NCBI GenBank assembly: GCA_965228895.1
Contig: OZ245842.1
Coordinates: forward strand, 4,032,001-4,096,000
Reading direction: 5' to 3'
DNA: 64,000 nucleotides
Source: Alphaproteobacteria bacterium
Lineage (GTDB): Bacteria; Pseudomonadota; Alphaproteobacteria; SP197
The notes under the pieces are model-generated. The model ran no database searches. It was not told the origin of the DNA and was given only the letters and a program-made list of their open reading frames with translations. Both the position numbers and the translations under genes were made by a program. Positions within the stretch are counted from its first letter, which is position 1, and each line of letters begins with the position of its first letter. This document shows, piece by piece, positions 47,176 through 64,000 of the stretch.

Positions 47176-50100
47176 ATGAGCGTTGCGCCTGAAGCCGGTC
47201 GCTGGCAATTCTGGATCGACCGGGGCGGCACGTTCACCGACGTTGTCGCCCAACGTCCGGACGGCGACCTGATCACCCACAAACTGCTGTCGGAGAACCC
47301 GGAGCGTTATGCCGACGCGGCCCTGCAGGGTATTCGCGACATCCTGGGTATCGACACCGGCGCTGTGATCCCGACAGACGCCATCGACGCGGTCAAGATG
47401 GGCACGACCGTCGCGACCAACGCGCTTCTGGAACGCAAGGGCGACCGGACCTTGCTTGCCATCAGCCGTGGCTTCCACGACGCCCTGCGCATCGCCTATC
47501 AAAACCGGCCCGACATCTTTGCGCGCCATATCATCCTCCCCGATTTGCTTTACGAGCGCGTGGTCGAGGTCGACGAACGGATCGACGCCCACGGCGACGT
47601 GGTCACGTCACTGGACCGTGATGCCGCGCGGTCCAGCCTGCAGCAGGCCTATGACGACGGCATTCGTGCCATCGCCATCGTCCTGATGCACGGCTATCGG
47701 CATGCCGCACACGAGAGAGAAGTGGCCGAGATCGCGCGCGACATCGGCTTCACGCAGATCTCGACATCGCACGCGACGACACCGCTGATGAAACTGGTGA
47801 GCCGCGGCGACACGACCGTGGTCGACGCCTATCTCTCGCCCATCCTGCGCCGCTATATCGACCGGGTGTCGTCGGAGCTGGGCGATACCCGCCTGCTCTT
47901 CATGCAGTCCAATGGCGGCCTGGTCGATGCCTTCCGCTTCCAGGGCAAGGACGCCATCCTGTCAGGGCCCGCGGGCGGTGTCGTTGGTGCGGTCAGAACC
48001 AGCGAAATGGCGGGGTTCGAGCGCATTATCGGCTTCGACATGGGCGGCACATCGACCGACGTCTCCCACTACAACGGCGTCTTCGAGCGCACCAGCGACA
48101 CCGAGATCGGCGGTGTTCGCATGCGCGCGCCGATGATGATGATCAAGACGGTCGCGGCCGGCGGCGGCTCGATCCTCTATTTCGACGGCCAGCGGCTGCG
48201 TGTCGGCCCCCAATCGGCCGGCGCCGATCCCGGCCCGGCGTGTTACCGGCGCGGCGGTCCGCTGGCAATCACCGACGCCAACGTGATGACCGGCAAGATC
48301 CTGCCCGACCTCTTCCCGAACGTTTTCGGGCCAGAAGGCGACCGGCCGCTCGATGCCGAGGCGGTCACAAATGCCTTCGAGACGCTGACCGCCGAGATCA
48401 ACGCCGCGTCGTCCGACACCAAGACACCGCAGGAGGTCGCCGACGGTTTTCTGATGATCGCGGTCGAGAACATGGCGCGCGCCATCAAGGAAATCTCGGT
48501 GCAGCGCGGTTACGCGATCTCTGACTACGCGCTCTGCTGTTTTGGCGGTGCCGCAGGGCAACACGCCTGCCTGGTCGCCGACGCGCTCGGCATGACGACG
48601 GTCTTCCTGCATCCTTTCGCAGGCGTTCTGTCGGCCTATGGCATGGGCCTGGCCGAACTGCGCGTCATCCATCAGGCGCCGGTCAACGACGGCCTGGACG
48701 ACGCCGTGATGCCCCATCTGGCCGAAACCATCGGCAAGCTGGAGCAGCAGGGCCGGGACGAACTGGAAAGCCAAGGCGTCGATCCCGCCGACATCACCGT
48801 CGCCGCGACGTTGCAAGTCCGTTATGACGGCACCGACAGCACGCTCGAGATCAACTATGGCGACCTAGCGACCATCAAGGAAGGCTTCGAAACGGCGCAT
48901 CGCCTGCGTTACGGTTTCGCAGCGCCCGACAAACCGCTCATCGTCGAGTCCCTTGCTGTCGAGACGATCGGCCAGGGCTCTGATGTGCGCGAGACGGTGG
49001 CGCCCAGCGCCGCGGGCGATCAGGCTGAAGCCGCGCAGCGTACGTCGATGTTCACGGCGGGCGCCGCCCACGACACCCCGGTCTTCCGGCGCGACGACCT
49101 GAAGCCCGGCCACCGCATCGCCGGTCCCGCCATCGTCGCGGAGGCCAACAGCACCACGGTGGTCGAGCCGGGCTGGACGCTTGAGGTGACAGACCACGAT
49201 CATCTTGTGATCAACCGAACGGAAGCGCGACCGGTCCAACATGCGATCGGCACCGAGGCCGACCCGATCATGTTGGAGGTTTTCAACAACCTCTTCATGT
49301 CGATCGCCGAACAGATGGGCCGGACGCTGGAGAACACCGCGTTCTCCGTCAACATGAAGGAACGGCTCGACTTTTCCTGCGCCATCTTCGACGGCGACGG
49401 CGAACTGATCGCCAACGCGCCGCACATGCCGGTGCATCTGGGTTCCATGGGCGAGACGGTGCGCGCGATCAACGCGTCACGGCGTGGCATCATGAAACCG
49501 GGCGACGTTTACGCCCACAACGCGCCCTATAACGGCGGCACCCACCTGCCCGATGTCACGATCGTGACGCCGGTGTTCGACGATGACGGGACGACCTTGC
49601 TGTTCTTCGTCGCCTCGCGCGGCCACCACGCGGACATCGGCGGCCTGACGCCAGGCTCCATGCCGCCCAACAGCCACACTGTCGAGGAAGAAGGCATTCT
49701 GTTCGACGATGTGGAGATCGTCGCCGAGGGACGCTTCCTGGAAGACGAGATCCGCCAGTTGCTGGGTTCCGGCCCCTACCCCTCCCGAAACGCCGATCAA
49801 AACATCGCCGACCTGAAAGCCCAGATCGCGTCGTGCGAAAAGGGCGTCCAGGAGCTCCATCGCATGGTCGCGCAGTTCTCATTGCCCGTGGTCCAGGCCT
49901 ATATGGGACACGTCCAGGACAACGCGGAGGAATCCGTCAGGCGCGTGATCGATGTCCTCAAGGACGGTCACTTCCGCTATCAGCTCGATAACGGCAGCGC
50001 GATCGAAGTGACGATCACGATCGACAGCCAGGCGCGCCGCGCACGTATCGACTTCGCGGGCACCTCGCCGCAACTGACCAGCAACTTCAATGCGCCCAGC

Positions 50101-50787
50101 GCGGTCGCCATGGCGGCCGTGCTCTATGTCTTCCGCAGCCTGGTCGATGACGACATACCGCTCAACGCCGGCTGTCTGAAGCCGATCGATATCGTGATCC
50201 CGCCGCATTCCATGCTGTCACCGGAGTATCCGGCGGCCGTCGTCGCCGGCAATGTCGAGACGTCGCAATGCATTGTCGACACGCTCTATGGCGCGCTCGG
50301 CGCCATGGCGGGGTCTCAGGGCACCATGAACAACCTGACCTTCGGCAACGCGCGCTACCAATACTACGAGACGATCTGCGGCGGGTCGGGCGCAGGCCCG
50401 GACTTCGACGGCACCGATGCCGTCCATACGCACATGACGAACTCCCGACTGACCGATCCGGAAGTGCTGGAATGGCGATTCCCCGTCCTGTTGGACGACT
50501 TCGCCATACGCCACGGCAGCGGCGGCGCCGGCGCGCACAAGGGCGGCGACGGCGTCAGACGGCGGCTGATCTTCCGCGAGGCCATGACGGCAGCGATCTT
50601 GTCGAACCACCGCCGCATCGCGCCGTTCGGCTTTGCCGGCGGGACCGACGCGTCAACCGGCCTCAATCGGGTCGAACGGGCCGACGGCAGTGTCGAACCG
50701 TTGGATGGCGCCGATCAGGCGGAGTTGGAACCTGGCGACGCGCTGGTGATCGAAACGCCCGGCGGCGGCGGTTACGGGGCGCCATGA
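47176..50787 (+). CDS. 5-oxoprolinase (fused hydantoinase A/B)
   Basis: [44 protein letters not shown]. Confidence 0.93.
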
Positions 50788-52055
50788 ACGACGCGCCATC
50801 GATCCGGAAAATCCTGATCGCGCTTGCGGCGCTGATCCTGGCAACCGCCATTTTGAACATCGCGAACGGCGCGATGTTCACGCTGATCGGCATCAGGCTC
50901 GCCAACGAGTTGTCGACCGGCTTGGTCGGTCTCATCACATCCGGCCACTTTATTGGCCTTTTGGCAGGCTCGATCACCGCCACCGGGATCATCGTACGGG
51001 TCGGCCACATCCGCGCCTTCACCGTGTTCGCTGCCGTCGCGGCGTGCGCCATCCTGTTGATGGGGCTTATCTTTTCGGTCCCCACCTGGTTCGTCTTCCG
51101 GTTCATCATCGGTTACTGCATGGCCGGACTCTTCATGGTGCTGGAGAGCTGGTTCAACGACCGGGCGACCAACGAGACCCGGGGACGCATTTTTGCGTCG
51201 TACCTGGTCGCGACATCCGGCGCCTTCGCCGTCGGACCGCTGTTGATCAACCTGGGCGACCCCATGAAGTACGCCCTGTTCGCCATGACGGCGATCTTGT
51301 TCAACATCTGCTTGCTGCCGATCGCCTTGACGCGTGAAGGCAATCCCACGATCGCCAAGGAAGGCCGGTTGTCGCTTAAGGAACTGATCGCGATATCGCC
51401 GCTTGGCGTGTTCGGCTGCTTCGCCGCGGGCCTGGCCAACAGCGCGGTCTACGGCCTGGGCGCGGTCTATGCCGACCTGATCGACCTTGAGCCTGCGGAA
51501 ATCTCGTTCATTTTCACTGCATTGATCGCCGGCGGCCTGGTCATGCAGTTGCCGATGGGCTGGCTGTCGGACCGTTTTGACCGGCGCACGGCGCTGATGA
51601 CGCTCACGGTGTCCGCCGTTGTTGCCGCCGGCCTTATCGTCGCATTTGGCGCTCATTCGTTCACGGCGCTGATCGTCCTGATCTTCATCTACGGCGGCGT
51701 GGCCGGTCCGATTTATGGCCTCTGCGTCGCCCAGACCAACGACTATGTCGATCGCGATCAGTTCGTCGCCGCCAGCAGCGGTTTGCTGATCGTCTATTCG
51801 ATCGGCGCCATTGCCGGTCCGAACATCGCGTCCTGGGTGATGGACTTGTTCGGCCCCTGGAGCCTGTGGCTCTATGTCGGCGTTGTCCTGCTTTGCCTCA
51901 GCGGTCTGGTCATGTATCGCAAGAAACGACGCGCGCCCCTGCCGGTCGAAGACCAGGGTGCCTATGTGCCGAGTGCGGTCGAATCACTGGCGACGGCCGA
52001 GATCGACCCGCGTGCCGCGCCGCCTCACCAACCGGCCAAAGACGGCGGAACGTGA
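50784..52055 (+). CDS. MFS transporter (YcaD-like)
   Basis: 12 [26 protein letters not shown] overlap. Confidence 0.88.
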
Positions 52056-52245
52056 AGGGAACGCCCCGCCAACTCCTTGATTCTTAACGACTTACGGTCC
52101 TGGTGTAAATTGGCAACACGGTGGCCGTTAGATCACGGTCACAGGTGGTTCAAGTGGACGTGAGGCGCCGGGCTATGCTATCCGACCATTCGTTCACCAA
52201 TGGATCTCCACTGGTGGCGTGGGATCGTGTGGCGCCTGAGGCGGC

Positions 52246-53118
52246 ATGAAGCGCGATCCTGAAAATCGAGCGTCCGTGGTTGTCAGGGCAGTTGTCTTGG
52301 GCTTTTCAGGTTTCGCGGCACGACTACTACGACTTGCGATCTCAACCGGCGGCGCTATCACGCTTGTTCTGGGGATGGCCGCTTGCGCGACGCCGCCGGA
52401 AGATCCGGTTGCGCGTCAGGCGTTTGAGGAAACCAACGATCCTCTGGAACCGCTGAACCGCTACATCTTCGACGTCAATCTTGCGATCGACGAGCTGGTC
52501 CTGACGCCGATTTCGACCATGTACGTCGAGGGTGTTCCGGAACCCTACCGCAACGGGGTCAGAAACTTTCTCCAGAACCTCAGCATGCCGATCACGATCC
52601 TGAACAGCGCGCTTCAAGGAGACGGAGAGAACACGGTCGATGCTTCGGTCTCGTTTTTCATCAACACGACTGCCGGTCTTGGTGGCATCTTCGATATACC
52701 CGGCAACTTCGATGAGGAACCGCGCCGCGAAGACTTTGGTCAGACACTTGCTGTCTGGGGCGCCGAACCCGGCCCCTATCTGGTTCTGCCTCTTATCGGC
52801 CCTTCGGATGTGCGCGATACGGTCGGCCTGGGCGTCGACATCGCCACCGACCCGACAACCTATGTCTTTTCGCCAGCCTTCAACTACGTGACGACCGGCG
52901 TGACCGCGGTTCAGTTCCGCGCCGATCAGCGGGTCGAATACGAGAATTTGAAGCGCACATCGGTTGACTTCTACGCGACGCTGCGTTCTCTCTACCGTCA
53001 GATTCGCCAGCAACAGATCAACAACGGCAATCTCGATACATCGACACTGGATTATGAACTGTCGGGCGTTGATGACTTCGATACCACTGACGATAGCGAC
53101 TCTGCGGAAGCACCGTGA
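52246..53118 (+). CDS. mlaA: VacJ/MlaA lipoprotein
   Basis: MAAC lipobox, DPLEPLNR, EDFGQTLAVWG, YLVLPLIGPS. Start uncertain. Confidence 0.92.
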   Translation: MKRDPENRASVVVRAVVLGFSGFAARLLRLAISTGGAITLVLGMAACATPPEDPVARQAFEETNDPLEPLNRYIFDVNLAIDELVLTPISTMYVEGVPEPYRNGVRNFLQNLSMPITILNSALQGDGENTVDASVSFFINTTAGLGGIFDIPGNFDEEPRREDFGQTLAVWGAEPGPYLVLPLIGPSDVRDTVGLGVDIATDPTTYVFSPAFNYVTTGVTAVQFRADQRVEYENLKRTSVDFYATLRSLYRQIRQQQINNGNLDTSTLDYELSGVDDFDTTDDSDSAEAP

Positions 53119-53732
53119 TTGAACGCCGCCACATCATCAGATCTGGAGTTGGCCTGGTCGCGTTGACCGCCGCGCCATCCGTGGCGCTGGCTGATCAAGT
53201 CGGTGACGCCGAGTCATTCATCGAAGATCGCGGCAACAAGCTGCTCGACATCCTCGGCATGGCGCCGGGCGATGCGCGGCGCAGCGCCTTTCGCGACTGG
53301 CTGAACGGTTCGTTCAACTTGACGCTGATCGGCAAGCTTGCGCTGGGCCCGTTTCTGCATCAGGCCACGCCGGACCAGCTCGAAGCCTACACCAAGGCGT
53401 TTAGCGACTATATCGTGGTGACCTACGAATCGCGTTTCGACACCTTCACCGGTTACAACCTGGAAGTCCTGAGGGGCCGGCCGGCAGGCAGCAAGGACAG
53501 CATTGTCCAAACGCTGATTTCTTATGGAAACGACACGTTCCACGTTGATTTCCGCGTCCGCCAGGACACAGGCGACGAATTGGATGTTATCGACGTCATG
53601 GTACAGAACGTGTCGATGCTGAAGACCCAGCAGGACGAGTTCCGCTCTGTCATTCAGCGTAGCGGTCTGGAGGGCCTGATCGACGGCCTGAAGAAACAGA
53701 CCGCCGACATTGAAGCGGACGCCCAAAGCTAG
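53115..53732 (+). CDS. mlaC: MlaC/Ttg2D phospholipid-binding protein
   Basis: Signal peptide, IDVMVQNVSML...QDEF. GTGA overlap with mlaA. Confidence 0.85.
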   Translation: MIERRHIIRSGVGLVALTAAPSVALADQVGDAESFIEDRGNKLLDILGMAPGDARRSAFRDWLNGSFNLTLIGKLALGPFLHQATPDQLEAYTKAFSDYIVVTYESRFDTFTGYNLEVLRGRPAGSKDSIVQTLISYGNDTFHVDFRVRQDTGDELDVIDVMVQNVSMLKTQQDEFRSVIQRSGLEGLIDGLKKQTADIEADAQS

Positions 53733-53755
53733 ATCTTTCCATCGTGATGTGGTCG

Positions 53756-55129
53756 CTAGGGCGTGAGCCAGCCGCGCGCCTGTTGCTCGCGCACCAAATC
53801 TGAACGCTTTGCACCGAACGCTATGGCCTCGCCAAGGGTCGTTACGCCCTGCGCCGCCAGCGCATCGACCAGGCGGATATAGAGCTCGGCGGTCACCAGC
53901 GCGTCGCCCAACGCGGTGTGTCGGCCTTCGATCGTGATGCCGAATTCTTCGGCCAGGCCATCAAGAGACAAGTCCTTACGGGCCGGATCAAGGGCTGCGG
54001 CCAACAACAACGTGTCGATGATCGACGGCGGATGCCATGACGACCCGATGCGTTCGACCTCATGGACAAGCACAGTCGCATCAAAGCCGATGTTGTGGCC
54101 GACCACCACCAGATCCTCCAGCGATGTTTCGATCGCCGGCCAGCGTTCGGCAAAGTCCGGCGCGCCGGACACCATCGCATCGGTAATGCCATGGACCGCC
54201 ACCGACCGCTTGGGAATAACGACGCCGGGATTGACCAGCAGATCCTGGGTCAGGGCCCGGTAAACCTGTGTGCCGTGCACGCGAACCGAACCGTATGACA
54301 AGACGCGATCGTGCTTTGCGTTAAGGCCCGTCGTTTCCGTGTCGATCACAGCGACCGAGAGATCGGCGAGCGGCGTGTCAGGACCGGCCGTCGCTGCAGG
54401 CGGTGGCAGGTCGTGCAGATCAAGCGCCAGTTCGACATGACGGCCGGCCGAGGGGCCTGTCTCCTGGAACCAGAGGACGGCGCCGCCGTGACGGACCAGG
54501 GGCACATAGCGGGCCCGGACCAAACGCCCGCCGATGATCTGAAGCTCGACATCTACACCGTTTTCGTTTGACGCTGCCTTGGCCCGCGCCTCGGCCATGG
54601 TGTGGCGGGTGAAAACGTCGTAGATGGTGGTGCCGGTGTTGGTGCCGTGTTCGCCCAGGGTGTCGCGGGCGGCGTCGTTGATGACGCTGACCAGCCCATT
54701 CTCGGTGATCACCAGAAGGCCACCGCCGACCGCTGCGACCACGTCGCGCAAACGCTCATCGGGTGCGGCGCGCTCGGTAGCCAGGCGGCCAATGTATTGA
54801 CCGAGCGTGTTGTGAAGTGCCGCCAGTTCCCCACCCGCCTGATCACCTTCGGCCGGCAGAACCCGGTGTGCGGGATCGCTCAACAAAACGGCGACCGCAC
54901 CGCGCAACCGCTCGACTTCGGTAAAGTGCCGTCGCACCCAGACAACGCCCGTGCCGCACAGGACGACAGCAAAGACAGCGACAAAAAAGAGGGCGGCCTG
55001 CGGCACGCCGATAAAGTCGAGCGCCAGGCTCAGGACGATCAGCAAGCCAGCCGCGGCAAAACAAGCGATCAGCCGGGCTGCCGTACTGTGCGGCCCTTGG
55101 TTCACGTCTGCCCCATCAAAAAACGTCAC
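53756..55129 (-). CDS. Membrane-anchored PAS-like plus DEDDh (DnaQ-like) 3'-5' exonuclease
   Basis: Two N-terminal TM, helical linker, PAS-like GLLVITENGLVSVINDAA, then IDTETTG, GHNIGFD, HTALGD. Confidence 0.88.
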   Translation of the reverse strand: MTFFDGADVNQGPHSTAARLIACFAAAGLLIVLSLALDFIGVPQAALFFVAVFAVVLCGTGVVWVRRHFTEVERLRGAVAVLLSDPAHRVLPAEGDQAGGELAALHNTLGQYIGRLATERAAPDERLRDVVAAVGGGLLVITENGLVSVINDAARDTLGEHGTNTGTTIYDVFTRHTMAEARAKAASNENGVDVELQIIGGRLVRARYVPLVRHGGAVLWFQETGPSAGRHVELALDLHDLPPPAATAGPDTPLADLSVAVIDTETTGLNAKHDRVLSYGSVRVHGTQVYRALTQDLLVNPGVVIPKRSVAVHGITDAMVSGAPDFAERWPAIETSLEDLVVVGHNIGFDATVLVHEVERIGSSWHPPSIIDTLLLAAALDPARKDLSLDGLAEEFGITIEGRHTALGDALVTAELYIRLVDALAAQGVTTLGEAIAFGAKRSDLVREQQARGWLTP

Positions 55130-56585
55130 CGGTCAGGTCAGCCTTGATCCGTCCGCGCAAACGGTCAACCGCCTTGAGCCGGTCGACCAGCATGTCGCGT
55201 TCGCGCTTGGTCAGCGTATGCGGGTCGACAAAATAGCTTACCTTGTTGCCGGCACGAAAATCCCTGATCTGCTGACGCAGGACGATATCGGTCAAGAGCC
55301 GATAGGCGGCGCTCAGGTAGTCTTGCTCGTCGGCGCCCAACACACCGATCTCGAGTAAGGCGTCCATGCGTTTGCGGGTCGATGTGTCGACGATGCCATG
55401 TTTCAGCGCCAACAGGCGCACGGGGGCGATCAACGGCAGCAGGCCCTGATGCTTCAGGTTCATTTTTCCCTTCAGGTCGCCGGAACGCACCGTCACGAAA
55501 CGGCCGAACCATCCAAGCGCCACATCGCCCTCCGCGTCATCGTGATACATGCTGCGCAGGAAGTGATGCTGGCGCGGCATCAAGGCTGCGATGAAACGGC
55601 GAAGCTCCTGAACGAAGTCCTGACGTCCGTAGACCGGACGAAAATCAAAGAAGATATCGGCCAAACGCGCCAGATTGAGGTTGTCGCGGCTCATCCACAG
55701 CTTCAGCTGCGCCTGCCACTGGCTACGTGTCTTGCGCCACAGCGGGTTGGTCGCCATGACGTTGCCGGGGCAATAGACAAACCCCAGTTCGTTCAGCATG
55801 TCGGTCATACGCGTCGCCAGTTCGATGAACCAGGCATCGATCGCGTTATGGTCATCGTCGGGATAGTCATCCAGGACGAAGCCGTTATCCTGATCGGGGA
55901 ACAGGAAACTCTCACCGCGCCCCGCCGAACCCATGACCAGAACCGCGAAGGCGACCGGCGGCTCGCCAAAACCGTCATCGCGCATCGTCTGTATGGAGAT
56001 GTCGACAGTACGGTGCATGACATCCAGGTTAATCTCGCTTAGCGCCTGTTGGATGTCGTCGGCATGCACGCCGTCAGCGAACAGCGTGTCGGCAATATCG
56101 ACCTGAGCCTGTTTGATCTTCTTCAGGCCCGCCACCGTGTCGTCGGCGGCGAGCATGTCGATCAGGGTCAGCGTCTGGCCGGCCGCGACTTCCAAGGCGT
56201 CTTCCAACCACAGCATGCCGACCGCGAACCCGGCATCGTCCAGCACCGGCATCTGATGCACGTTGGCGTGGCGCATCCGGACAATGGCCTGGTGCATGTT
56301 GTCGTGCGGATAGGTGCTCTTGATGGGCGCCGTCATCACCCGTTCAACGGGCCCGGTGCGGTCATCCATCAGCGCGATGCGGGTCACCACGTCCCGCTCG
56401 GTGAGCAGGCCGGTGGGCAGGCCGTGTTCATCGGCCACCAACAGGCAACTCGCGCCGTTTTTCGCCAACGACGCCACCGCGTCACCGATGCTGGTGGTTG
56501 CCGGCACGATCAGCGGATCGGTTTTCATACGATCGCTTACTTTGCGGCGAAAGATATCGATTTGTGATGGCGCTTGTCGGTTCAT
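55116..56585 (-). CDS. CBS-pair plus DUF294 (GlnD/GlnE-like) nucleotidyltransferase
   Basis: CBS motifs GLLTERD and HQMPV; NTase motif MGSAGRGE...DQDNG; GNVMATNP.W, IFFDFR, NLKHQG. Confidence 0.9.
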   Translation of the reverse strand: MNRQAPSQIDIFRRKVSDRMKTDPLIVPATTSIGDAVASLAKNGASCLLVADEHGLPTGLLTERDVVTRIALMDDRTGPVERVMTAPIKSTYPHDNMHQAIVRMRHANVHQMPVLDDAGFAVGMLWLEDALEVAAGQTLTLIDMLAADDTVAGLKKIKQAQVDIADTLFADGVHADDIQQALSEINLDVMHRTVDISIQTMRDDGFGEPPVAFAVLVMGSAGRGESFLFPDQDNGFVLDDYPDDDHNAIDAWFIELATRMTDMLNELGFVYCPGNVMATNPLWRKTRSQWQAQLKLWMSRDNLNLARLADIFFDFRPVYGRQDFVQELRRFIAALMPRQHHFLRSMYHDDAEGDVALGWFGRFVTVRSGDLKGKMNLKHQGLLPLIAPVRLLALKHGIVDTSTRKRMDALLEIGVLGADEQDYLSAAYRLLTDIVLRQQIRDFRAGNKVSYFVDPHTLTKRERDMLVDRLKAVDRLRGRIKADLTGDVF

Positions 56586-56888
56586 CGTCGATCAATGATA
56601 ACGCAGTGGCGGCAAGATGTTCTGATTTAGGACAGAATAAGTTCTCGTGATGAAAAAAGCTTTCACATGATAACGACTTATCGCCGGTGTGCAGATTGTG
56701 TGATTTGTCACGACCGCCCCACTTTGGTATAAACAATATGGGTTTGGGGGTGGCTTTTTCTCACTGACATTAAGATCAGGCTCAATCCGTCACCTCCTTA
56801 ACTGACGAATGTTGGGGCGCGAACGTTTGTCGCGCGCCGAACTTTCGTCGGTCTTTTTGCCTGGCGAGGCAGATAGGGGAGAAGTTCG

Positions 56889-58928
56889 GTGGAAGCAAAA
56901 GTCTATTGGCTCTTTGCGTTCGTGTTGCTGTACTGGTGCTACTGTATCTTCTGGGGCATCAAGAGTGCACGTACGGCCAAGACGGCAAGCGATTACTTTA
57001 TCGCAGGCCGCCGTCTGGGCATGTGGGTATTTGTTCTGGCGGCGACGGCGACGTCGTTCTCGGGCTGGACCTTCATGGGTCATCCCGGCCTGATTTATCG
57101 CGATGGCTTCCAGTACGCCTACGCGTCCTTCTACGCCATCACCATCCCGTTCACCGGCGTCATGTTCTTGAAGCGTCAGTGGATGCTCGGCAAACGCTTC
57201 GGCTATGTGACGCCGGGCGAAATGCTGTCGGACTATTTCCGCGGTGACGGCATACGCATTCTGACCGTTATTGTCGCCCTGCTCTTCTCGATTCCCTATC
57301 TGGGTGTCCAGCTTGGCGCCTCCGGGTTCTTGTTCTCGGTCCTGACCGACGGCGTCGTCGACAAGGACTTCGGCATGTGGATCCTGTCGCTGGTCGTCTT
57401 GATCTATGTTGCCTCCGGCGGCCTACGCGCTGTCGCCTATGTGGATACGCTGCAATGTATCCTGCTGGCGGTCGGCATCATGATCACGGGTGTCATCGCG
57501 CTCAATCTTGCCGGCGGCTGGGGCGCTCTCAACGAAGCTTACGGTGCGCTCGCCGCGACCGGCATCGGCAAATGGGGTGTGACGGAGGCTGGCCATAACG
57601 CCTACTTCGCCATACCCGGCGTCATCCAGTTCACCGCGGGCCTGGGTCAGGAGACGCCTGTCGGCGGCTTGTGGACCGGCGTCATGGTGCTGACCTACAT
57701 GTTTGCCCTGATGGGCATCCAGTCAGCGCCCGCCTTCACCATGTGGTCCTTCGGCAACACGAGCCCGAAGCCGTTCGCGCCGCAGCAGGTCTGGGCCTCG
57801 TCGTTCGCGATCGGCCTGATCCTGTTCTTCTTTACGGCGGTTCAGGGCATGGGCGCCAATGTGTTGGGCGCCAACGTTCCGGTAAACGACGAGAACCTGG
57901 CAATCTCGCAGGGTCTCAATCTGGAACTCGGCAACACCGACCCGGCGCTGATCCTGGGCCGGCCGTTGGCCGAGGATGAGATCATCACCACCACCGGTCA
58001 GATCATCATGGCCAAGCCGGACTCGCTGGTGCCGTTCTACTTCAACACCATCGGCGAATCGATGCCGTGGCTGGTCGGTATTCTGGCGGTCTGTGCTCTG
58101 GCGGCGATGCAGTCGACGGGTGCGGCTTACATGTCGACTGCCGGCGCGATGCTGACCCGTGACCTCTACAAGAAGTACCTGAACCCATCGGCATCCCATA
58201 CCCAGCAGAAGTTCCTGGGCCGTGTCGGTGTCGCGTTCATCGTGTTTGCCGCCCTGCTGGTGGCGACGTTCAGTTCCGATGCTCTTGTGCTCTTGGGCGG
58301 TCTGGCGGTCGCCTTCGGCTTCCAGATGTGGCCGTCGCTGGCGGCGGTGTGTTGGATTCCCTGGATCACCAAGGCTGGTGCGACGTGGGGCCTGGCCGTT
58401 GGCCTTCTGGCGGTCATCTTCACCGAGACCTTCGGTGCGACGATAGCCGGCTGGTTCGGTTTCGAACTGCCATGGGGCCGCTGGCCGTGGACCATCCACA
58501 GCGCCGGTTGGGGCATCTTGTTCAATGTCATTGTCGTGGTCCTGGTTTCCGCGGCGACGCAGAACAGCGAAGCCCGTGCCCACAGGGAGACCTATCACAG
58601 CTTCCTGCGTGAACATGCCGGCCTGTCGGAGAGCAAGCGCAAGCTGATCCCGACGGCATGGATCGTCACCATCGCGTGGCTGATCTTCGGCATCGGCCCG
58701 GGTGCCGTCATCGGCAACACCATCTTCGGTACGCCTAACGATGCCTCGACCTGGATCTTCGGCATTCCGTCGATCTGGGCCTGGCAGATCCTGTTCTGGA
58801 TCCTGGGCGTCGCGATGATGTGGTTCCTGGCCTACAAGATGGAAATGTCGACCGTGCCGGACAAGGAAGTCGAGTCGTTGACCGACGACATCGGCGACCT
58901 GGCTGCCGGCAAAGCCGCGGCCGACTAA
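56889..58928 (+). CDS. Sodium:solute symporter (SSS) with a C-terminal two-TM extension
   Basis: DYFIAGR, ATSFSGWTF, GGLRAVAYVD, AAMQST. GTG start with a GGGGA RBS. Confidence 0.92.
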   Translation: MEAKVYWLFAFVLLYWCYCIFWGIKSARTAKTASDYFIAGRRLGMWVFVLAATATSFSGWTFMGHPGLIYRDGFQYAYASFYAITIPFTGVMFLKRQWMLGKRFGYVTPGEMLSDYFRGDGIRILTVIVALLFSIPYLGVQLGASGFLFSVLTDGVVDKDFGMWILSLVVLIYVASGGLRAVAYVDTLQCILLAVGIMITGVIALNLAGGWGALNEAYGALAATGIGKWGVTEAGHNAYFAIPGVIQFTAGLGQETPVGGLWTGVMVLTYMFALMGIQSAPAFTMWSFGNTSPKPFAPQQVWASSFAIGLILFFFTAVQGMGANVLGANVPVNDENLAISQGLNLELGNTDPALILGRPLAEDEIITTTGQIIMAKPDSLVPFYFNTIGESMPWLVGILAVCALAAMQSTGAAYMSTAGAMLTRDLYKKYLNPSASHTQQKFLGRVGVAFIVFAALLVATFSSDALVLLGGLAVAFGFQMWPSLAAVCWIPWITKAGATWGLAVGLLAVIFTETFGATIAGWFGFELPWGRWPWTIHSAGWGILFNVIVVVLVSAATQNSEARAHRETYHSFLREHAGLSESKRKLIPTAWIVTIAWLIFGIGPGAVIGNTIFGTPNDASTWIFGIPSIWAWQILFWILGVAMMWFLAYKMEMSTVPDKEVESLTDDIGDLAAGKAAAD

Positions 58929-58956
58929 CCGTCACAGCCCAGGATGTGGCAACATG

Positions 58957-58990
58957 CGGGGGAGGGCCTAGCCCTCCCCCGTTTTTCTTT
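58957..58990 (+). terminator. Rho-independent terminator
   Basis: cgggggagggc-cta-gccctcccccg followed by tttttcttt. Confidence 0.8.
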
Positions 58991-59005
58991 GGTAGATAGT
59001 GTTTT

Positions 59006-59236
59006 ATGGCCGATCTAGCTTCGCCCGAGTTCGCGCCCTATTGGGCTATTCTTCTGGCCGTCGTGCTGTTCTTTCCGGTGCGGCAGCTGATCTGGGTGAT
59101 GTCCGTCAGACGCGCCGAACGCGACGGCAACGAAGATGAGGAACGCCGGCAATCGTTGCGCCGACGGGCAAGTTTCACCGCTGCCCTTCTGTGTTTCATC
59201 GTCGCCTTCCTCTACGCCAACACCTGGAATCCGTGA
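59006..59236 (+). CDS. Small two-TM membrane protein
   Basis: 76 aa, two hydrophobic helices flanking a charged loop. Confidence 0.7.
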   Translation: MADLASPEFAPYWAILLAVVLFFPVRQLIWVMSVRRAERDGNEDEERRQSLRRRASFTAALLCFIVAFLYANTWNP

Positions 59237-59249
59237 CACCTAGAACGGC

Positions 59250-59858
59250 ATGAACGAAGCAGTCCTCAGACGTTTCATTAAGATCACGATCGTGACGATC
59301 CTGGTCGGCGGTGTCGCCATCCTGGGCTATGACTGGTTCCAAAGTCAGGAACCCGGCGACTACTATGTGCGCGAGGGCGACATCCGCCTGAGTGACGGCA
59401 AGTTCGACGAAGCGCTGGTGAGTTTCGACAAGGCGCTTCAGGAAATGCCCGACCATCGCGGCGCCCTGATGGGCCGCGCCATCGTGTTCATTCAAACCGA
59501 ACGTTACGACGATGCCATCGTCGAACTCAACTACCTCATCGACTTTCTGAACCGGACCCTGGTCGAGGAGGACCTGACCGGCAAGGGAACATTGGCCGCC
59601 GCCCACGCCAACCTGGGCATCGTCTATGATCGGCTGGGCCGCTACGAGGAGGCGCTCGACGAATACGCCCGGGCGCTCAACACCGACGAAGAATCGGTGG
59701 AGGGGCCGGGTCTGGTGCAGAAGATTTTGCATGACGCCGACCCGTCGACGGTGCGCGACCGCGCCATCTATATCTACGAGCAGCTCCAGTTGCCCGAAGA
59801 CGAACGCCTGATGTCGGTCCCCGAGCTCGACGCCGAAGAACGCATGTACAAACCCTGA
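59250..59858 (+). CDS. Membrane-anchored TPR protein
   Basis: N-terminal TM; TPR patterns GKFDEAL..FDKAL and NLGIVYDRLGRYEEAL..YARAL. Confidence 0.85.
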   Translation: MNEAVLRRFIKITIVTILVGGVAILGYDWFQSQEPGDYYVREGDIRLSDGKFDEALVSFDKALQEMPDHRGALMGRAIVFIQTERYDDAIVELNYLIDFLNRTLVEEDLTGKGTLAAAHANLGIVYDRLGRYEEALDEYARALNTDEESVEGPGLVQKILHDADPSTVRDRAIYIYEQLQLPEDERLMSVPELDAEERMYKP

Positions 59859-59866
59859 CGTCGGGT

Positions 59867-60067
59867 TCAGAACTCGACGACGCCCAGGACATCCTGCAAC
59901 AGGACAAGACAGAAGAAGACGGCGGCAATACAGCCGAACAGCTGATGCACGAAGTCGCCGTTGCCGTCCTCGTCGCGGAACCGTATGCCGCGCCAGGCGA
60001 TAAATGCGGTCACGGCCAGAAACAGAACGTTGAGGGGCATCTCCCACTCGCCGGCGGACTCAAACAT
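59867..60067 (-). CDS. Small two-TM membrane protein
   Basis: 66 aa, two hydrophobic helices, GAGG RBS, directly after the upstream gene. Confidence 0.65.
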   Translation of the reverse strand: MFESAGEWEMPLNVLFLAVTAFIAWRGIRFRDEDGNGDFVHQLFGCIAAVFFCLVLLQDVLGVVEF

Positions 60068-60073
60068 GATGCC

Positions 60074-60550
60074 TCAATCGCTGGTTTGGCCTGACTGCAG
60101 GTCGTCGGATTCGAAGAACGGCGGCAAGACGGATGTCGCGCGTGTCTCCGGCGCCAGTTGCGCCAGGGCGAGGCTACCGGCCATGGCGAAGACAATCCAG
60201 AACACGGCCATACCGAAGCGGCGATAGCCCTGCGGCGGTGTGCGGTAGTAATCGCAGTCGTAGCGGTGAAAGCCCGGCTGGCTGTCATCCAGTTCGTCGC
60301 GCTCGTCGGCCTCGATGATGCTGCGTGCATAGTGGCGCGCCCAGATCGGCACCTCGCCTTTGAACATGTAACGCTCGAACAGCCCGTCGACCATGGATTC
60401 CGGCATCTCTTCGCCATGCCACGATGCATAGGCGAGCTGCAGCAATTGAAACTCGCCGATCTGCAGCAGGTTCGCCGCCTGCGCGACGTCACCACGATCG
60501 GACGGCTCCTCTTGGTCGGGACGCAGCAGCGTCTGGAAAAAACCAGCCAT
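60074..60550 (-). CDS. Hypothetical protein with a C-terminal TM helix
   Basis: 158 aa; globular EFQLLQLAY...VPIWARHYAR region followed by a hydrophobic helix. Confidence 0.72.
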   Translation of the reverse strand: MAGFFQTLLRPDQEEPSDRGDVAQAANLLQIGEFQLLQLAYASWHGEEMPESMVDGLFERYMFKGEVPIWARHYARSIIEADERDELDDSQPGFHRYDCDYYRTPPQGYRRFGMAVFWIVFAMAGSLALAQLAPETRATSVLPPFFESDDLQSGQTSD

Positions 60551-60615
60551 GGCCTATCATACCGCCGAATGGCCGGGCGGCGAATGCTACGATTTTGTGA
60601 TCGCGCACGTGTCGT

Positions 60616-61404
60616 TTAAGGGCGTCGTGCGTCGATATGGAGGTGCAAAGCGCCTCGCGCCTCCAGGGCTTCGGCGCGCAGGGCGCTCAGCTTCACCCGC
60701 ACGTTGAAATAGTCCTCACCCAGGGCCTCGCGCACATGACGGCCCTCGTCGCTGGTCGCGAAAGCGTGCTCGCGCCGCGCCACCTCGGCCGAATTGGCGG
60801 TGTGGTCCTTGATCGCCACGTCCACAAACCCGGCATCGGCCAGCGCTGCCTCATAGGCCGGCCGACCCTCATAGTGGAAACTCAGACCGAACGTCTTCAG
60901 CATACCCACCCAATCCGCGAACAGCGCGGCAGCTTTGCCATCGGCCTCGCCATCCAGAAAATCGGCGCACAGGAAGCGGCCACCGGGTTTTAGGACGCGG
61001 AAGACGTCGGCGAACAACGCCGGTTTGTCGGCGACATGGCAGATCACGTCCTTGGTAAAGACGATGTCGACAGAGCCGTCAGGCGCCGGCAGCGCACCGG
61101 GCACCATGTGCACGAAGTCTACGCGATCGCCCAGGCCGGCCTCCTGGGCCGCGACCGTGGCGCGTGCAATGGAGTCGGCCTCGATGTCGACGCCGATCAC
61201 GTGCTTGGCGCCGAAGGCATCGGCCAGCATCAAGGCCGCGCCGCCAATGCCGCAGCCAAGATCCAGGACGTCGAGCCCGGCGATGTCGACGCCTTCCAGA
61301 ATCTCCACCACCTCCGGTGCGGCGCCCGGTGACAGGAAACCCTTGCCATAGACCATCTGCATCCCGGCGATCACACGGTCACTGTACTGGCTCTGAAACG
61401 ACAT
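60616..61404 (-). CDS. SAM-dependent N-methyltransferase (phosphoethanolamine/sarcosine-dimethylglycine type)
   Basis: YGKGFLSPG, VLDLGCGIGG, KDVICH, RVLKPGG. Confidence 0.85.
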   Translation of the reverse strand: MSFQSQYSDRVIAGMQMVYGKGFLSPGAAPEVVEILEGVDIAGLDVLDLGCGIGGAALMLADAFGAKHVIGVDIEADSIARATVAAQEAGLGDRVDFVHMVPGALPAPDGSVDIVFTKDVICHVADKPALFADVFRVLKPGGRFLCADFLDGEADGKAAALFADWVGMLKTFGLSFHYEGRPAYEAALADAGFVDVAIKDHTANSAEVARREHAFATSDEGRHVREALGEDYFNVRVKLSALRAEALEARGALHLHIDARRP

Positions 61405-61484
61405 ACCCGCTGTTCTCCCGACGCCATGCATGACTCTGATCTGAGACGCGCTAATCTATCGCCCAATCCAGGGAGGCTCATACC

Positions 61485-63290
61485 ATGGTGATGTCACGTC
61501 CGGAAATCGTTGGCACCTTCGGTGTCGTCACCTCGACACACTGGCTGGCCAGCGCCGCCGGCATGGCGATGCTTGAGAAAGGCGGCAACGCGTTCGATGC
61601 CGCCGTCGCCGTGGGCTGCGTTCTGCACATTGTTGAACCCGAACAGAACGGTCCGGGCGGCGATTGCCCGCTCATCCTGTGGAGCGCGACGAAGGAGAAG
61701 GTCGAGGTGATCTGCGGTCAGGGCGTGGCACCCCGGGCGATCTCCAGCGGTGCGTTGCGCGATATGGGCCTCGACGTCATGCCCGGCGTCGGTCACCTGC
61801 CGGCGGTCGTTCCCGGCAGCTTCGGCGCCTGGATGCGCCTGCTGCACGACTATGGCTCGCTCACGGTACGTGACGTCCTGGAACCGGCGATAACGGCCGC
61901 GCGCGACGGTTTTCTGATGAAACCCGGTGTCGCCAACGTCATCGCACGGTCCGGCGGCTTCATGAAGCAGTACTGGCCGAGCTCGGCGGAGGTCTACCTG
62001 GTCAACGGCGAAGCGCCGGAGGCCGGCGGCCTCTACAGCCTGCCCGCCCAGGGCGACACCTATGCCCGTATCGTTGAAGAGGCGGAAGCCGCAGGCAGCG
62101 ACCGTGAAGCGCAGGTCGAAGCGGCGCGGCGCGCCTGGTACGAGGGGTTTGTCGCCGAAGCCATCGACCAGTTCATGCGCGAACCGGTGATGGACACCTC
62201 CGGCGAAAGCCACAGCGGCTACATGACCGGCGACGATTTGGCCGGGTGGCGCGCCGAGGTCGAGGAGCCCGTCACCTACGACTACGGCGACTACAAAGTC
62301 TGCAAGGCCGGGCCCTGGGCGCAGAGCCCGATCTTCCTGCAGCAATTGGCACTGCTCAAAGACTATGACCTTCAGGCCATGGATCCGGTGGGACCGGAGT
62401 TCATCCATACGGTCCAGGAATGCGCTAAACTCGCGATCGCCGACCGCGAGGCCTTCTATGGCGATCCGAAATTTGTCGACGTGCCGCTCGCCGAACTCCT
62501 GTCCGACGACTACAACGCCGAGCGGCGCAAGCTGGTCGGCGAGGACGCCCGTCTCGACCTGCCGCCGGGCCACATCGACGGTTATGGCGGCGAGGTGCGG
62601 CTGAGGGCGCACGGCTCGACCAACGTCGCCCATCACGAGATGACCATGGAAGGTGAAGGCGGTGAACAGAAGAACCCTGACTGGGCGCAGTTCATCGCCG
62701 AAAACCACGGCGATACCTGCCATTTCGACATCATCGACCGCTGGGGCAACATGATTTCGGGCACGCCGAGCGGCGGCTGGCTTTCCGGCTCGCCGGTGGT
62801 CCCCGGTCTGGGTTTCCCCGTGTCCGTGCGCGGCCAGATGTTCTGGCTCGACGACGATCATCCCAACGGCCTGGCGCCCGGCAAACGTCCGCGCACCACG
62901 CTGACACCGACGCTGGCGCTGCACAACGACGAGCCCTATCTGGTGTTTGGCACACCCGGCGGCGACCAGCAGGATCAGTGGGCGCTGCACGCCTTCCTGC
63001 GCCATGTGCACCATGGCATGAACCTGCAGGAAGCCTGCGACGCCCCCTCGTTCTACACCGACCACGTGCCCAGCTCGTTCTATCCGCGCGAATGGCTGCC
63101 GGGTCATCTGGCCGTCGAAAGCGACCTGCCACGCGGTACCATGGCCGAGCTCGACCGCCGTGGGCACAAGCTGGAGATCTTCGGCAAGTGGGGCCACTAC
63201 AACTCGATCACCATGGCGTCCAAACGCGGCAAGACGCTGCGCGCCGGCGCCAGCCCCCGCCGCGAGCAATGCTATGCGATAGGCCGGTGA
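61485..63290 (+). CDS. Gamma-glutamyltransferase family protein
   Basis: GGNAFDAAVA, VPGSFGAW, DTCHF Thr nucleophile, PGKRPRTTL, GTPGGDQQ. Confidence 0.93.
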   Translation: MVMSRPEIVGTFGVVTSTHWLASAAGMAMLEKGGNAFDAAVAVGCVLHIVEPEQNGPGGDCPLILWSATKEKVEVICGQGVAPRAISSGALRDMGLDVMPGVGHLPAVVPGSFGAWMRLLHDYGSLTVRDVLEPAITAARDGFLMKPGVANVIARSGGFMKQYWPSSAEVYLVNGEAPEAGGLYSLPAQGDTYARIVEEAEAAGSDREAQVEAARRAWYEGFVAEAIDQFMREPVMDTSGESHSGYMTGDDLAGWRAEVEEPVTYDYGDYKVCKAGPWAQSPIFLQQLALLKDYDLQAMDPVGPEFIHTVQECAKLAIADREAFYGDPKFVDVPLAELLSDDYNAERRKLVGEDARLDLPPGHIDGYGGEVRLRAHGSTNVAHHEMTMEGEGGEQKNPDWAQFIAENHGDTCHFDIIDRWGNMISGTPSGGWLSGSPVVPGLGFPVSVRGQMFWLDDDHPNGLAPGKRPRTTLTPTLALHNDEPYLVFGTPGGDQQDQWALHAFLRHVHHGMNLQEACDAPSFYTDHVPSSFYPREWLPGHLAVESDLPRGTMAELDRRGHKLEIFGKWGHYNSITMASKRGKTLRAGASPRREQCYAIGR

Positions 63291-63335
63291 AACGCGGCCG
63301 CGCGTAGGAAACGGCGCGCGCCGCCGTTGAAAGAC

Positions 63336-64000
63336 ATGGCCAAGCGTTTCTTCAACCTGCTGGCGGCGGCCTTGACGCTGGCTGCTGCACTCCTGCGGGC
63401 AGGGCTGGCCCAGGCCGACACTCTGGAGCATGGCGGCCTCGAACGTGCCTTTGAGGTCTATGTGCCCGACGGCATCGCCATGCCGGCACCGGCCGTCGTG
63501 TTGCTCCACGGCGGTGGTGGTTCGGGTAAGCAGTTGCGCCGGCACACCGACTTCAACGATCTGGCCGACGAGGCCGGCTTTATCGTCATCTATCCCGAAG
63601 GCATCGACGGCCACTGGAACGACGGACGCGACGATCCCTGGCTCGACAGTCAGGCGGCGGCGCAACACGACGACGTCGGTTTCATTACCGCCATGCTGGA
63701 CCGTCTTATCGCTGACGGCCTGATCGACCCACAGCGCGTCGGCGTTGCCGGCATATCGAACGGCGGCATGATGACGCAGCGCCTGGCCTGCGAAACACCC
63801 GAACGGTTCATCGGTTTCGCGGTCGTCGCCGCGAACATCGCGGTCGGCCAGGAATGCCCTGGCGGTAGACCAGCGCCGATGCTGTTCATCCATGGCAGCA
63901 ACGATCGGCTGGTTCCCTATGACGGCGGTCCCATCGGCCTTCCCGGCGGCAAGGCGCGCGGCACCGCCTGGTCGGTACGGGATACGCTGGATGCCTGGGC
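63336..64000 (+). CDS. Secreted PHB-depolymerase/LpqC-like esterase (partial, runs off the window; absent from the ORF track)
   Basis: Manual translation: MAKRFFNLL signal peptide, LLHGGGG, YPEG, DDVGFI, GISNGG, IHGSND. Confidence 0.88.
   Translation, partial: MAKRFFNLLAAALTLAAALLRAGLAQADTLEHGGLERAFEVYVPDGIAMPAPAVVLLHGGGGSGKQLRRHTDFNDLADEAGFIVIYPEGIDGHWNDGRDDPWLDSQAAAQHDDVGFITAMLDRLIADGLIDPQRVGVAGISNGGMMTQRLACETPERFIGFAVVAANIAVGQECPGGRPAPMLFIHGSNDRLVPYDGGPIGLPGGKARGTAWSVRDTLDAW

Follow-up and report, generated by a model that had tools for sequence, protein, structure and literature searches.

The locus described here lies in a 64,000-nucleotide window of an alphaproteobacterial genome (GTDB lineage SP197; assembly GCA_965228895.1, contig OZ245842.1, positions 4,032,001 to 4,096,000 of the forward strand), for which a nucleotide writer/eraser signalling system coupled to a solute symporter had been proposed from the letters of the sequence. 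All window coordinates are positions within this stretch, and P0001 to P0005 denote the five genes of the span originally noted. These five genes were located exactly where the original prediction had placed them. They form two facing operons, with a CBS-DUF294 nucleotidyltransferase (NTase, P0001) and a DEDDh exonuclease (P0002) on the minus strand, and a symporter of the SSS family (P0003), a small membrane protein (P0004) and a TPR protein (P0005) on the plus strand. The divergence of the latter three genes from the NTase-exonuclease pair was borne out, together with a PF00474 match for the transporter, hydrophobic segments for the small protein and TPR repeats for the last. The proposed span (53756-59858) was right in its content but not in its end at 59858, since two further genes on the minus strand, at 59867-60067 and 60074-60550, also belong to the block. 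We tentatively read the pair as a writer and an eraser of a protein modification that would act as a brake on uptake.

The NTase P0001 (55116..56585, minus strand) has 489 amino acids and consists of a CBS pair (residues 16-130), an NTase domain (163-301) and a DUF294_C domain (341-482). In Pfam, the CBS pair scored 59.9 bits in two stretches (cut-off 24), DUF294 (PF03445) 134.2 bits (cut-off 21) and DUF294_C (PF10335) 126.7 bits (cut-off 22.5). The N-terminal domain for binding cyclic nucleoside monophosphates (cNMP) that marks the COG2905 archetype is absent: PF00027 gave no match and the CBS pair begins at residue 16. The pol-beta-type motif reported earlier (GS...DQD) proved intact, as G219-S220...D231-Q232-D233 (nucleotides 55887-55931, minus strand) and D314 are invariant in an alignment of 51 sequences.

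An AlphaFold2 model of P0001 built from 51 sequences reached a pLDDT of 91.1. In a search of 48,161 chains it best matched the N-terminal half of GlnE (1v4a_A; Z 26.0, root-mean-square deviation 4.5, 329 residues aligned), the C-terminal half of GlnE (3k7d_B; Z 25.8, deviation 4.2, 326 aligned) and DrrA bound to Rab8a (6yx5_B; Z 25.3, deviation 3.8, 296 aligned). Foldseek concurred on GlnE and DrrA (E 3.7e-08 and 1.4e-07). After these, the best 50 matches listed contained CBS proteins only (Z at most 17.6), and no nucleic-acid polymerase, poly(A) polymerase, CCA-adding enzyme, CD-NTase or cyclic-oligonucleotide synthase was among them. The kinship of DUF294 to GlnD/GlnE-type NTases, stated with the original prediction, is visible in the fold, with the NTase core and the helical domain shared with GlnE and DrrA. 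P0001 falls outside the GlnE equivalog (NF010707, 28 bits vs a cut-off of 625), and a sequence search of solved structures matched its CBS domains only, with none over the NTase part.

The exonuclease P0002 (53756..55129, minus strand) has 457 amino acids, with a transmembrane (TM) hairpin at residues ~16-66, a long helix (95-133), a PAS-like domain (126-221) and the exonuclease domain (258-451). The latter matched RNase_T (PF00929) over residues 261-417 with 104.1 bits (cut-off 24). The DEDDh set (D263, E265, D350, H404 and D409) is conserved in 65 homologues. Among 117 partner exonucleases, D263 and E265 were each found in 116 (one gap), H404 in all 117 and D409 in 116, and D350 is retained in 96 and replaced by E in 21. 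In the AlphaFold2 model, from 65 sequences (pLDDT 88.7), two helices span residues 16-39 and 44-84 and the long helix 95-133; residues 137-221 form an alpha/beta domain of five strands with helices on its flanks, ahead of the exonuclease domain (258-451). For the exonuclease domain, the nearest folds in Foldseek were the DinG exonuclease domain, PolC, Pol III epsilon, ExoX and RNase T. The PAS score of P0002 itself (PF00989, 17.9 bits) is under the cut-off of 22.6, and PF00989 was matched at E ≤ 0.01 by 47 of the 65 family members, with 1.4e-06 as the best value. The reported two TM helices and intact DEDDh nuclease were upheld by the hairpin of the model and the conserved active site, and the PAS-like domain is a candidate suggested by the family matches. 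Judging from their conserved residues, P0001 and P0002 both look active.

The 14-bp gene overlap reported for the pair exists with the longest open reading frame (ORF; GTG at 55129) only. It disappears with the start GTG at 55105, which lies 10 nt past the NTase stop codon, is preceded by GGGG and yields 449 amino acids. This GTG corresponds to the start of P0007, an 87%-identical orthologue of P0002. With either start codon, the two genes are tightly coupled. Co-folding of the NTase with the exonuclease domain (residues 225-457), run without controls, scored 0.00 in both runs, a result that speaks neither for nor against binding.

Co-inheritance of the NTase and the exonuclease

The co-occurrence and synteny of DUF294, DEDDh and SSS genes were surveyed, with a clearly positive outcome. 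Among 40 relatives searched, a true DUF294 match was defined as E ≤ 8e-34; weaker matches lay in frames of 900-2000 amino acids, which we take to be GlnD/GlnE. True DUF294 was present in 15 of the 40, and a DEDDh gene was adjacent to it or fused with it in 15/15. The 25 relatives lacking DUF294 had no P0002 match better than 1e-18. For the phylum, 201 genomes were drawn evenly, of which 72 contained DUF294 at E ≤ 1e-20, and the best locus of each of the 71 other genomes was scanned with purpose-built hidden Markov models. An exonuclease domain was found within 4 kb of the NTase in 61/71 of these loci, always on the same strand and in two cases fused. When only loci with at least 2.5 kb on either side are considered, the exonuclease was present in 58 of 63, and five of the 10 loci without it end at a contig edge. 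The phylum counts are descriptive and not a statistical test, because the sampled genomes are related to one another to different extents. Fusions in the order exonuclease-CBS-NTase numbered three among the relatives (703, 715 and 1126 amino acids) and two in the phylum sample.

Closer to the window, 'orthologous loci' were defined as the best 80 of 596 relatives of its NTase subfamily (40-51% identity), many of them limited by contig ends. The exonuclease was seen in 51 of these 80, and one more had a partial match at the contig end. Taken together, the pairing of the NTase with the exonuclease is strongly non-random.

The whole block of seven genes is itself a unit. Searched at the DNA level against two genomes of the same genus, window positions 48000-53735 matched G002:C31:6911-12648 and positions 60617-64000 matched G002:C31:3496-6878. 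The two flanks (the mlaC side and the methyltransferase side) are thus 32 bp apart in G002:C31, and 31 bp apart in G001:C146. Since the flanks are contiguous in both genomes, 53736..60616 represents one indel of 6.9 kb. Genome searches of the two same-genus genomes gave no true DUF294 match, no partner-type exonuclease and no orthologue of the symporter. The seven genes were gained or lost as one unit, by gain here or by loss in the sister genomes. The G+C content is 0.54-0.56 at 56000-57499 inside the block and 0.64-0.66 in the flanks; around the 6.9 kb, no convincing flanking repeats or mobility genes were found. The block is best read as a self-contained, mobile-looking accessory cassette. 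On the distant flanks of the insertion site lie a gene for a fused hydantoinase/oxoprolinase A+B (47176-50787, plus strand, 1203 amino acids) and a gamma-glutamyltranspeptidase gene (61485-63290, plus strand), both enzymes of the gamma-glutamyl cycle; a 799-aa ORF at 61494-63893 (minus strand) is the shadow of the latter.

These data bear on the simplest alternative, namely that P0002 is an ordinary DNA-repair or proofreading exonuclease that neighbours the NTase and the symporter by chance. DnaQ-like domains are indeed common: a separate DnaQ-like frame lies at G000:C1:5058246-5058791, and further copies occur in every genome searched. P0002 itself, however, stays below the dnaQ equivalogs (TIGR01406, 81.8 bits vs 222.7; NF004316, 77.1 vs 196), and chance is contradicted by the pairing in the relatives and across the phylum, by the fusions and by the single indel. 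We consider this explanation scarcely credible.

The pair occurs in two main forms. In the first, represented by 32 of the 61 phylum exonucleases, the exonuclease is shorter than 280 amino acids, has no hydrophobic N-terminus and follows a long DUF294 frame (~600-750 amino acids); the DUF294 protein of one relative with this form (L016) carries a cNMP domain. In the second (24/61), the exonuclease has 465-760 amino acids, with one to three hydrophobic segments ahead of the exonuclease domain, and the DUF294 frame is mostly short (~350-590 amino acids; a few 610-680). The remainder are the two fusions and three unclear cases. The window pair belongs to the second, anchored form. Hydrophobic segments were called by a crude Kyte-Doolittle window scan, which found them before the exonuclease domain in 28 of 33 partners at orthologous loci; these 33 were taken from 52 exonuclease ORFs, the rest being omitted as look-alikes in length and layout rather than by a principled choice.

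Several variants were seen alongside these forms. When 14 exonuclease ORFs were compared with Pfam, six had PAS-family matches, six had the exonuclease domain only and two were fusions with EamA, a 10-TM drug/metabolite transporter (L065:10248-11825(-) and L090:9808-11328(-)). In one relative, an EamA gene (L011:11478-12578(+)) lies directly downstream of a fused exonuclease-NTase. Family-level relatives have an ORF of 220-300 amino acids with no Pfam family just upstream of the exonuclease (L003:11890-12633(-), L002:11726-12481 and L006:8814-9482(+)), making a three-gene operon; the window contains no such ORF. In four loci (L049:10913-12592(+), L059:10889-12568(+), L034:13793-15472(+) and L015:7923-9758(-)) an ABC-F ATPase of 559-611 amino acids, with two ABC domains and an ABC_tran_Xtn linker, adjoins the exonuclease gene, which may be mere shared synteny.

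The symporter, its accessory genes and the intergenic region

The symporter P0003 (56889..58928, plus strand, 679 amino acids; hereafter 'SSS679') matched PF00474 with 105.8 bits. It was matched at the superfamily level only (PF00474, TIGR00813 region) and stayed under all named subfamily cut-offs: PutP (93 bits vs 515.5), the VC_2705 type (TIGR03648, 85.9 vs 320.75), MctP (76.7 vs 625) and PanF (67 vs 328). Its homologues have 650-680 amino acids, the 120 listed are 74-97% identical, and their source names are generic ('sodium:solute symporter' or 'Na+/proline symporter'). By these matches, P0003 is a member of an uncharacterised, highly conserved SSS subfamily.

The link of the pair to symporters extends beyond the window. 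In the phylum sample, an SSS gene was found within 5 kb in 46/71 loci, and both an SSS gene and the exonuclease in 43. Family-level relatives have, divergent from the NTase-exonuclease pair, a DUF4212 small subunit and a 605-aa SSS gene. Among the 80 orthologous loci, an SSS679 orthologue (at least 50% identity, mostly 65-77%) occurred in 45, P0004 in 29, P0005 in 29 and all three in 27; the symporter was divergent and at most 1.5 kb away in 25. Conversely, an SSS679 orthologue was present in 15 of 400 other class-level genomes, and 11 of the 15 have DUF294, in 10 cases on the same contig within 7 kb.

A connection with solute symporters of varied subfamilies, and not with one protein family, could also mean that the substrate is a small molecule, with the NTase adenylylating the transported solute or a metabolite and the hydrolase recycling the adduct. 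Aminoglycoside nucleotidyltransferases, which have a related helical C-domain, adenylylate small molecules, and DUF294_C is described in Pfam as a putative substrate-binding domain. The best fold matches of P0001 are nevertheless protein-modifying enzymes, and the sensor-rich architecture has the look of signalling rather than catabolism. Moreover, no catabolic gene emerged as a consistent neighbour of the cassette in the nine orthologous loci annotated, for which 29 of 87 unlabelled ORFs were run against Pfam. Genes outside the cassette vary between genomes; the ABC-F ATPase recurs in three of the nine. We regard modification of a small molecule as improbable.

Four small genes accompany SSS679. 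The small membrane protein P0004 (59006..59236, plus strand, 76 amino acids) lies 3' of the symporter and has two hydrophobic segments; no Pfam family scored above its cut-off. The TPR protein P0005 (59250..59858, plus strand, 202 amino acids) has one N-terminal hydrophobic segment followed by TPR repeats. Convergent with the TPR gene is o66 (59867..60067, minus strand, 66 amino acids), with hydrophobic stretches seen by eye, and upstream of it o158 (60074..60550, minus strand, 158 amino acids), with a hydrophobic stretch near the C-terminus, likewise by eye. By tblastn, o66 was matched in 20 of the 80 orthologous loci (45-71% identity), each time adjoining the TPR gene, and o158 in 17 (29-54% identity). 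Neither has a Pfam family, and the atlas clusters closest to o158 are unnamed hypothetical proteins. In orthologous loci the four genes accompany SSS679 as a fixed set, of which the TPR protein alone has a Pfam family, and their products may be transporter subunits or assembly factors. Beside the more distant SSS679-like genes of five family-level relatives (42-48% identity), neither the NTase nor the exonuclease nor any of the four accessory genes was found.

The divergent intergenic region between the two operons (56586..56888) measures 303 bp and yielded no recognised regulatory element. No consensus sigma-70 promoter-like site was found in 56400-57000, where two terminator-like hairpins were counted vs 1.0 expected. 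A sigma-54 promoter with CbrB-type sites before the symporter was considered and rejected, since the 303 bp contained no site with at least 9/11 identity to TGGCAC-N5-TTGCA and no TGTTAC/GTAACA. The corresponding regions of 25 orthologous divergent loci had one weak sigma-54-like site (L059) and, in four, at most one TGTTAC/GTAACA hexamer. In the 5' leader of the symporter (56810-56860), a G+C-rich hairpin (GGGGCGCGAACGTTTGTCGCGCGCC) is followed at 56836-56862 by another short one with a run of T; the start codon of the symporter comes ~30 nt after this terminator-like site, which has no Rfam match. In some orthologous loci, for example L018 (L018:2817-7943(+)), the interval between symporter and NTase contains a ScfR-type regulator (domains HTH, M78-like and ScfRs), a single receiver and a histidine kinase of 958 amino acids. 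The N-terminal 700 amino acids of this kinase are without assignment, and a gap of the same size (~5.4 kb) was seen in about eleven orthologous loci. In the window's own genome, the ScfR-type regulator (PF09856) had no match.

The position of the pair beside the 5' region of the symporter operon is compatible with control at the RNA level, in which the NTase would tail or mark a transcript or small RNA and the DEDDh enzyme would trim it, so that the symporter operon would be controlled through its expression and not through protein activity. The substrates known for DEDDh enzymes are nucleic-acid 3' ends, and the best fold matches of P0002 are the DinG exonuclease domain, PolC, Pol III epsilon and RNase T. 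The NTase, on the other hand, resembles the protein AMPylators GlnE and DrrA, and the best 50 matches listed include no poly(A) polymerase, CCA-adding enzyme or CD-NTase. The recurrent membrane anchoring of the exonuclease would be odd for an RNA-processing enzyme. Finally, an Rfam search of 53000-60500 at E ≤ 1 returned only a chance snoRNA-like match and no conserved RNA element. We therefore hold RNA-level control to be unlikely.

A candidate brake on symporter-dependent uptake

Genetic data from other bacteria, here drawn from sources available in part, provide a setting for the pair. In Pseudomonas fluorescens SBW25, Pflu5625, a protein with cAMP-binding, CBS and NTase domains, is a member of the CrbS/R regulon without a mutant phenotype, and a prediction that it regulates proteins by nucleotidylation is cited (Sepulveda and Lupas, PMC5715377). 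In Pseudomonas alloputida KT2440, PP_0353 and PP_0354 are among the genes most dependent on MxtR/ErdR, which are also named CrbS/CrbR (2026 preprint, bioRxiv 10.64898/2026.09.07.749794). According to the same preprint, deletion of either gene reduced growth on propionate, while growth on pyruvate was impaired by loss of the exonuclease PP_0353, yjcH or actP-I and little affected by loss of the NTase PP_0354; its authors suggested protein modification. In P. aeruginosa, PA3232-PA3235, including ActP, were ~16-fold up on propionate (PMC9765439). Price et al. (bioRxiv 10.1101/072470) reported cofitness of a nearby 'COG2905 (RNAse T domain protein)' with DUF4212 symporter subunits, the extra gene of these clusters mattering genetically for symporter-dependent growth on lactate and D-alanine. 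No work on the chemistry of the two enzymes turned up in our literature search.

The GlnE/DrrA-like fold of the NTase, which is that of enzymes placing AMP or UMP on protein tyrosines, the complete two-metal hydrolytic site of its partner, the fusions and the asymmetry on pyruvate together lead us to favour a reversible nucleotidylylation in which the NTase brakes symporter-dependent uptake and the exonuclease releases it. We put this forward tentatively, as a reading somewhat short of probable. The NTase, gated by its CBS pair, would nucleotidylylate a Tyr, Thr or Ser residue of a protein needed for uptake, which might be the symporter, one of its small partners or a downstream enzyme. The mark is taken to be inhibitory because, on pyruvate, P. 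alloputida needs the exonuclease, like the transporter, and not the NTase. The DEDDh enzyme would then lift the brake by hydrolysing the protein-O-NMP phosphodiester (NMP, nucleoside monophosphate), which would be the same P-O cleavage that gives 5'-NMP from the 3' end of a nucleic acid. It would be tethered to the inner face of the membrane by its TM hairpin and gated by its PAS-like domain, so that a sensor domain on each enzyme would set the balance between writing and erasing. What we infer in this scheme is the class of substrate, the protein targeted, the sign of the effect and what the sensors bind, from the observed domains, active sites, folds, co-inheritance, fusions and indel. The transfer of NMP to a protein had been part of the original prediction and gains support from the GlnE and DrrA matches (Z 25-26), though it is not a new suggestion. 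The Pseudomonas genetics and those of Price et al. fit the braking and releasing roles proposed here.

The tight, same-strand and often translationally coupled pairing, and the existence of fusions, would also suit a different logic, in which the nuclease is the output and is AMPylated by the sensor NTase, or in which the two enzymes turn over a linear or cyclic oligonucleotide signal near the transporter. MntA, which AMPylates HepT, is a precedent for an NTase that switches its nuclease. Sensors are present on both partners (CBS and cNMP on the NTase, PAS and the TM anchor on the exonuclease) and all DEDDh residues are conserved. The fold of the NTase is, however, GlnE/DrrA-like and not cGAS/DncV-like, and by Pfam the seven genes include no evident effector or receptor. 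A signal whose action depends on prior synthesis is also at odds with the reported pyruvate phenotypes of Pseudomonas, where the cells need the exonuclease but can do without the NTase. We judge this explanation decidedly unlikely. The probability left by the nucleotidylylation brake and its four alternatives falls to something unlisted here.

A number of observations weigh against the nucleotidylylation brake. We know of no protein de-nucleotidylylase with a DEDDh fold, and the nearest solved relatives of the exonuclease domain all act on nucleic acids. The genomic associations have gaps. An SSS gene was not within 5 kb in 25 of the 71 DUF294 phylum loci, and four of the 15 genomes with SSS679 lack DUF294, three of these four being one genus. 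Of the 80 orthologous loci, 29 have no exonuclease in the available DNA; 10 of these extend for less than 2.5 kb on one side, and 19 for at least 2.5 kb on both. Five genomes from the latter 19 were checked: in four, a partner-type exonuclease is encoded at another site (frames of 512-812 amino acids, E 8e-39 to 8e-34), and the best match in the fifth was 1.3e-19. A common acceptor site is not evident, because the symporter partners differ by lineage (ActP/DUF485, DUF4212/VC_2705-type and SSS679). On the genetic side, the deletion phenotypes reported in Pseudomonas are mild (bioRxiv 10.64898/2026.09.07.749794), and the guess of Price et al. was that the gene is needed for the symporter to be expressed, as opposed to a role in transport activity (bioRxiv 10.1101/072470).

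Should the exonuclease-fold partner strip NMP from a protein, this would be a new activity for a well-known nuclease fold and a new post-translational control of a transporter. In its fullest version, a DnaQ-fold exonuclease would have been recruited as a protein de-nucleotidylylase and, with its GlnE/DrrA-like writer, would form a third reversible NMPylation switch beside GlnE and GlnD, present in about one third of the sampled Pseudomonadota and gating sodium-coupled uptake at the membrane, here by acting on an uncharacterised symporter or its four partners. This version is possible but doubtful. The module is common in the phylum sample and, in the published work, tied genetically to carboxylate uptake in model bacteria. 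The window offers a compact, self-contained version of seven genes that is gained or lost as a single unit and would be a convenient cassette for heterologous study, and it points to an abundant and very conserved symporter subfamily.

Relation to known systems

In fold (a pol-beta NTase core with a helical domain) and in the G-S...D-x-D motif, P0001 agrees with GlnE, GlnD and DrrA (SidM). Like GlnE and GlnD, this family would also place a writer and an eraser under the control of a single sensor, and the fused forms found here have the CBS pair between the two catalytic domains. The erasers differ: in GlnE it is a second NTase domain, in GlnD an HD domain, and SidD, which acts opposite DrrA, has a PP2C-like fold, whereas the candidate eraser here has the DEDDh exonuclease fold. 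With the DnaQ/epsilon-type exonucleases (Pol III epsilon, PolC, DinG and RNase T), P0002 has in common the fold and all five catalytic residues. Unlike these, it carries an N-terminal TM hairpin, a long helix and a PAS-like domain, is encoded together with a DUF294 NTase and is not the dnaQ of its genome.

The closest parallels are the Pseudomonas loci (PP_0353/PP_0354, Pflu5625 and PA3232-PA3235), where, as far as they are described, a CBS-DUF294-DUF294_C NTase and an RNase_T-type exonuclease are likewise tied to symporter genes, in that case for monocarboxylates. The window has the same module: the pair is adjacent on one strand, and an SSS symporter lies 303 bp away in divergent orientation. 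Compared by published description only, the NTase of Pseudomonas carries a cNMP-binding domain in addition and its exonuclease no described anchor, a form to which the long DUF294 frames with short, TM-free exonucleases (32 of the 61 phylum pairs) correspond, whereas the window NTase is without the cNMP domain and its exonuclease has the TM hairpin and the PAS-like domain. The window symporter is also not ActP, unlike the partner of the Pseudomonas pair. No CrbS/R-type system or site came to light here, though no search aimed at one was made.

The clusters of Price et al. (bioRxiv 10.1101/072470) resemble the window in that a small membrane subunit, an SSS symporter and NTase/exonuclease genes share one neighbourhood, and the layout of the family-level relatives is exactly their cluster of DUF4212 with a VC_2705-type symporter. 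The window departs from these clusters in that the small partner is downstream rather than upstream and is not DUF4212, the symporter is not TIGR03648, and three further accessory genes are present. The NTase-exonuclease pair is accordingly not a new system, being already in print as an uncharacterised MxtR/ErdR target for which protein modification has been suggested. New here are the symporter subfamily, the four accessory genes and the behaviour of the block as a cassette, together with two variant features of the pair, an NTase without cNMP domain and an exonuclease with a TM hairpin and a PAS-like domain.

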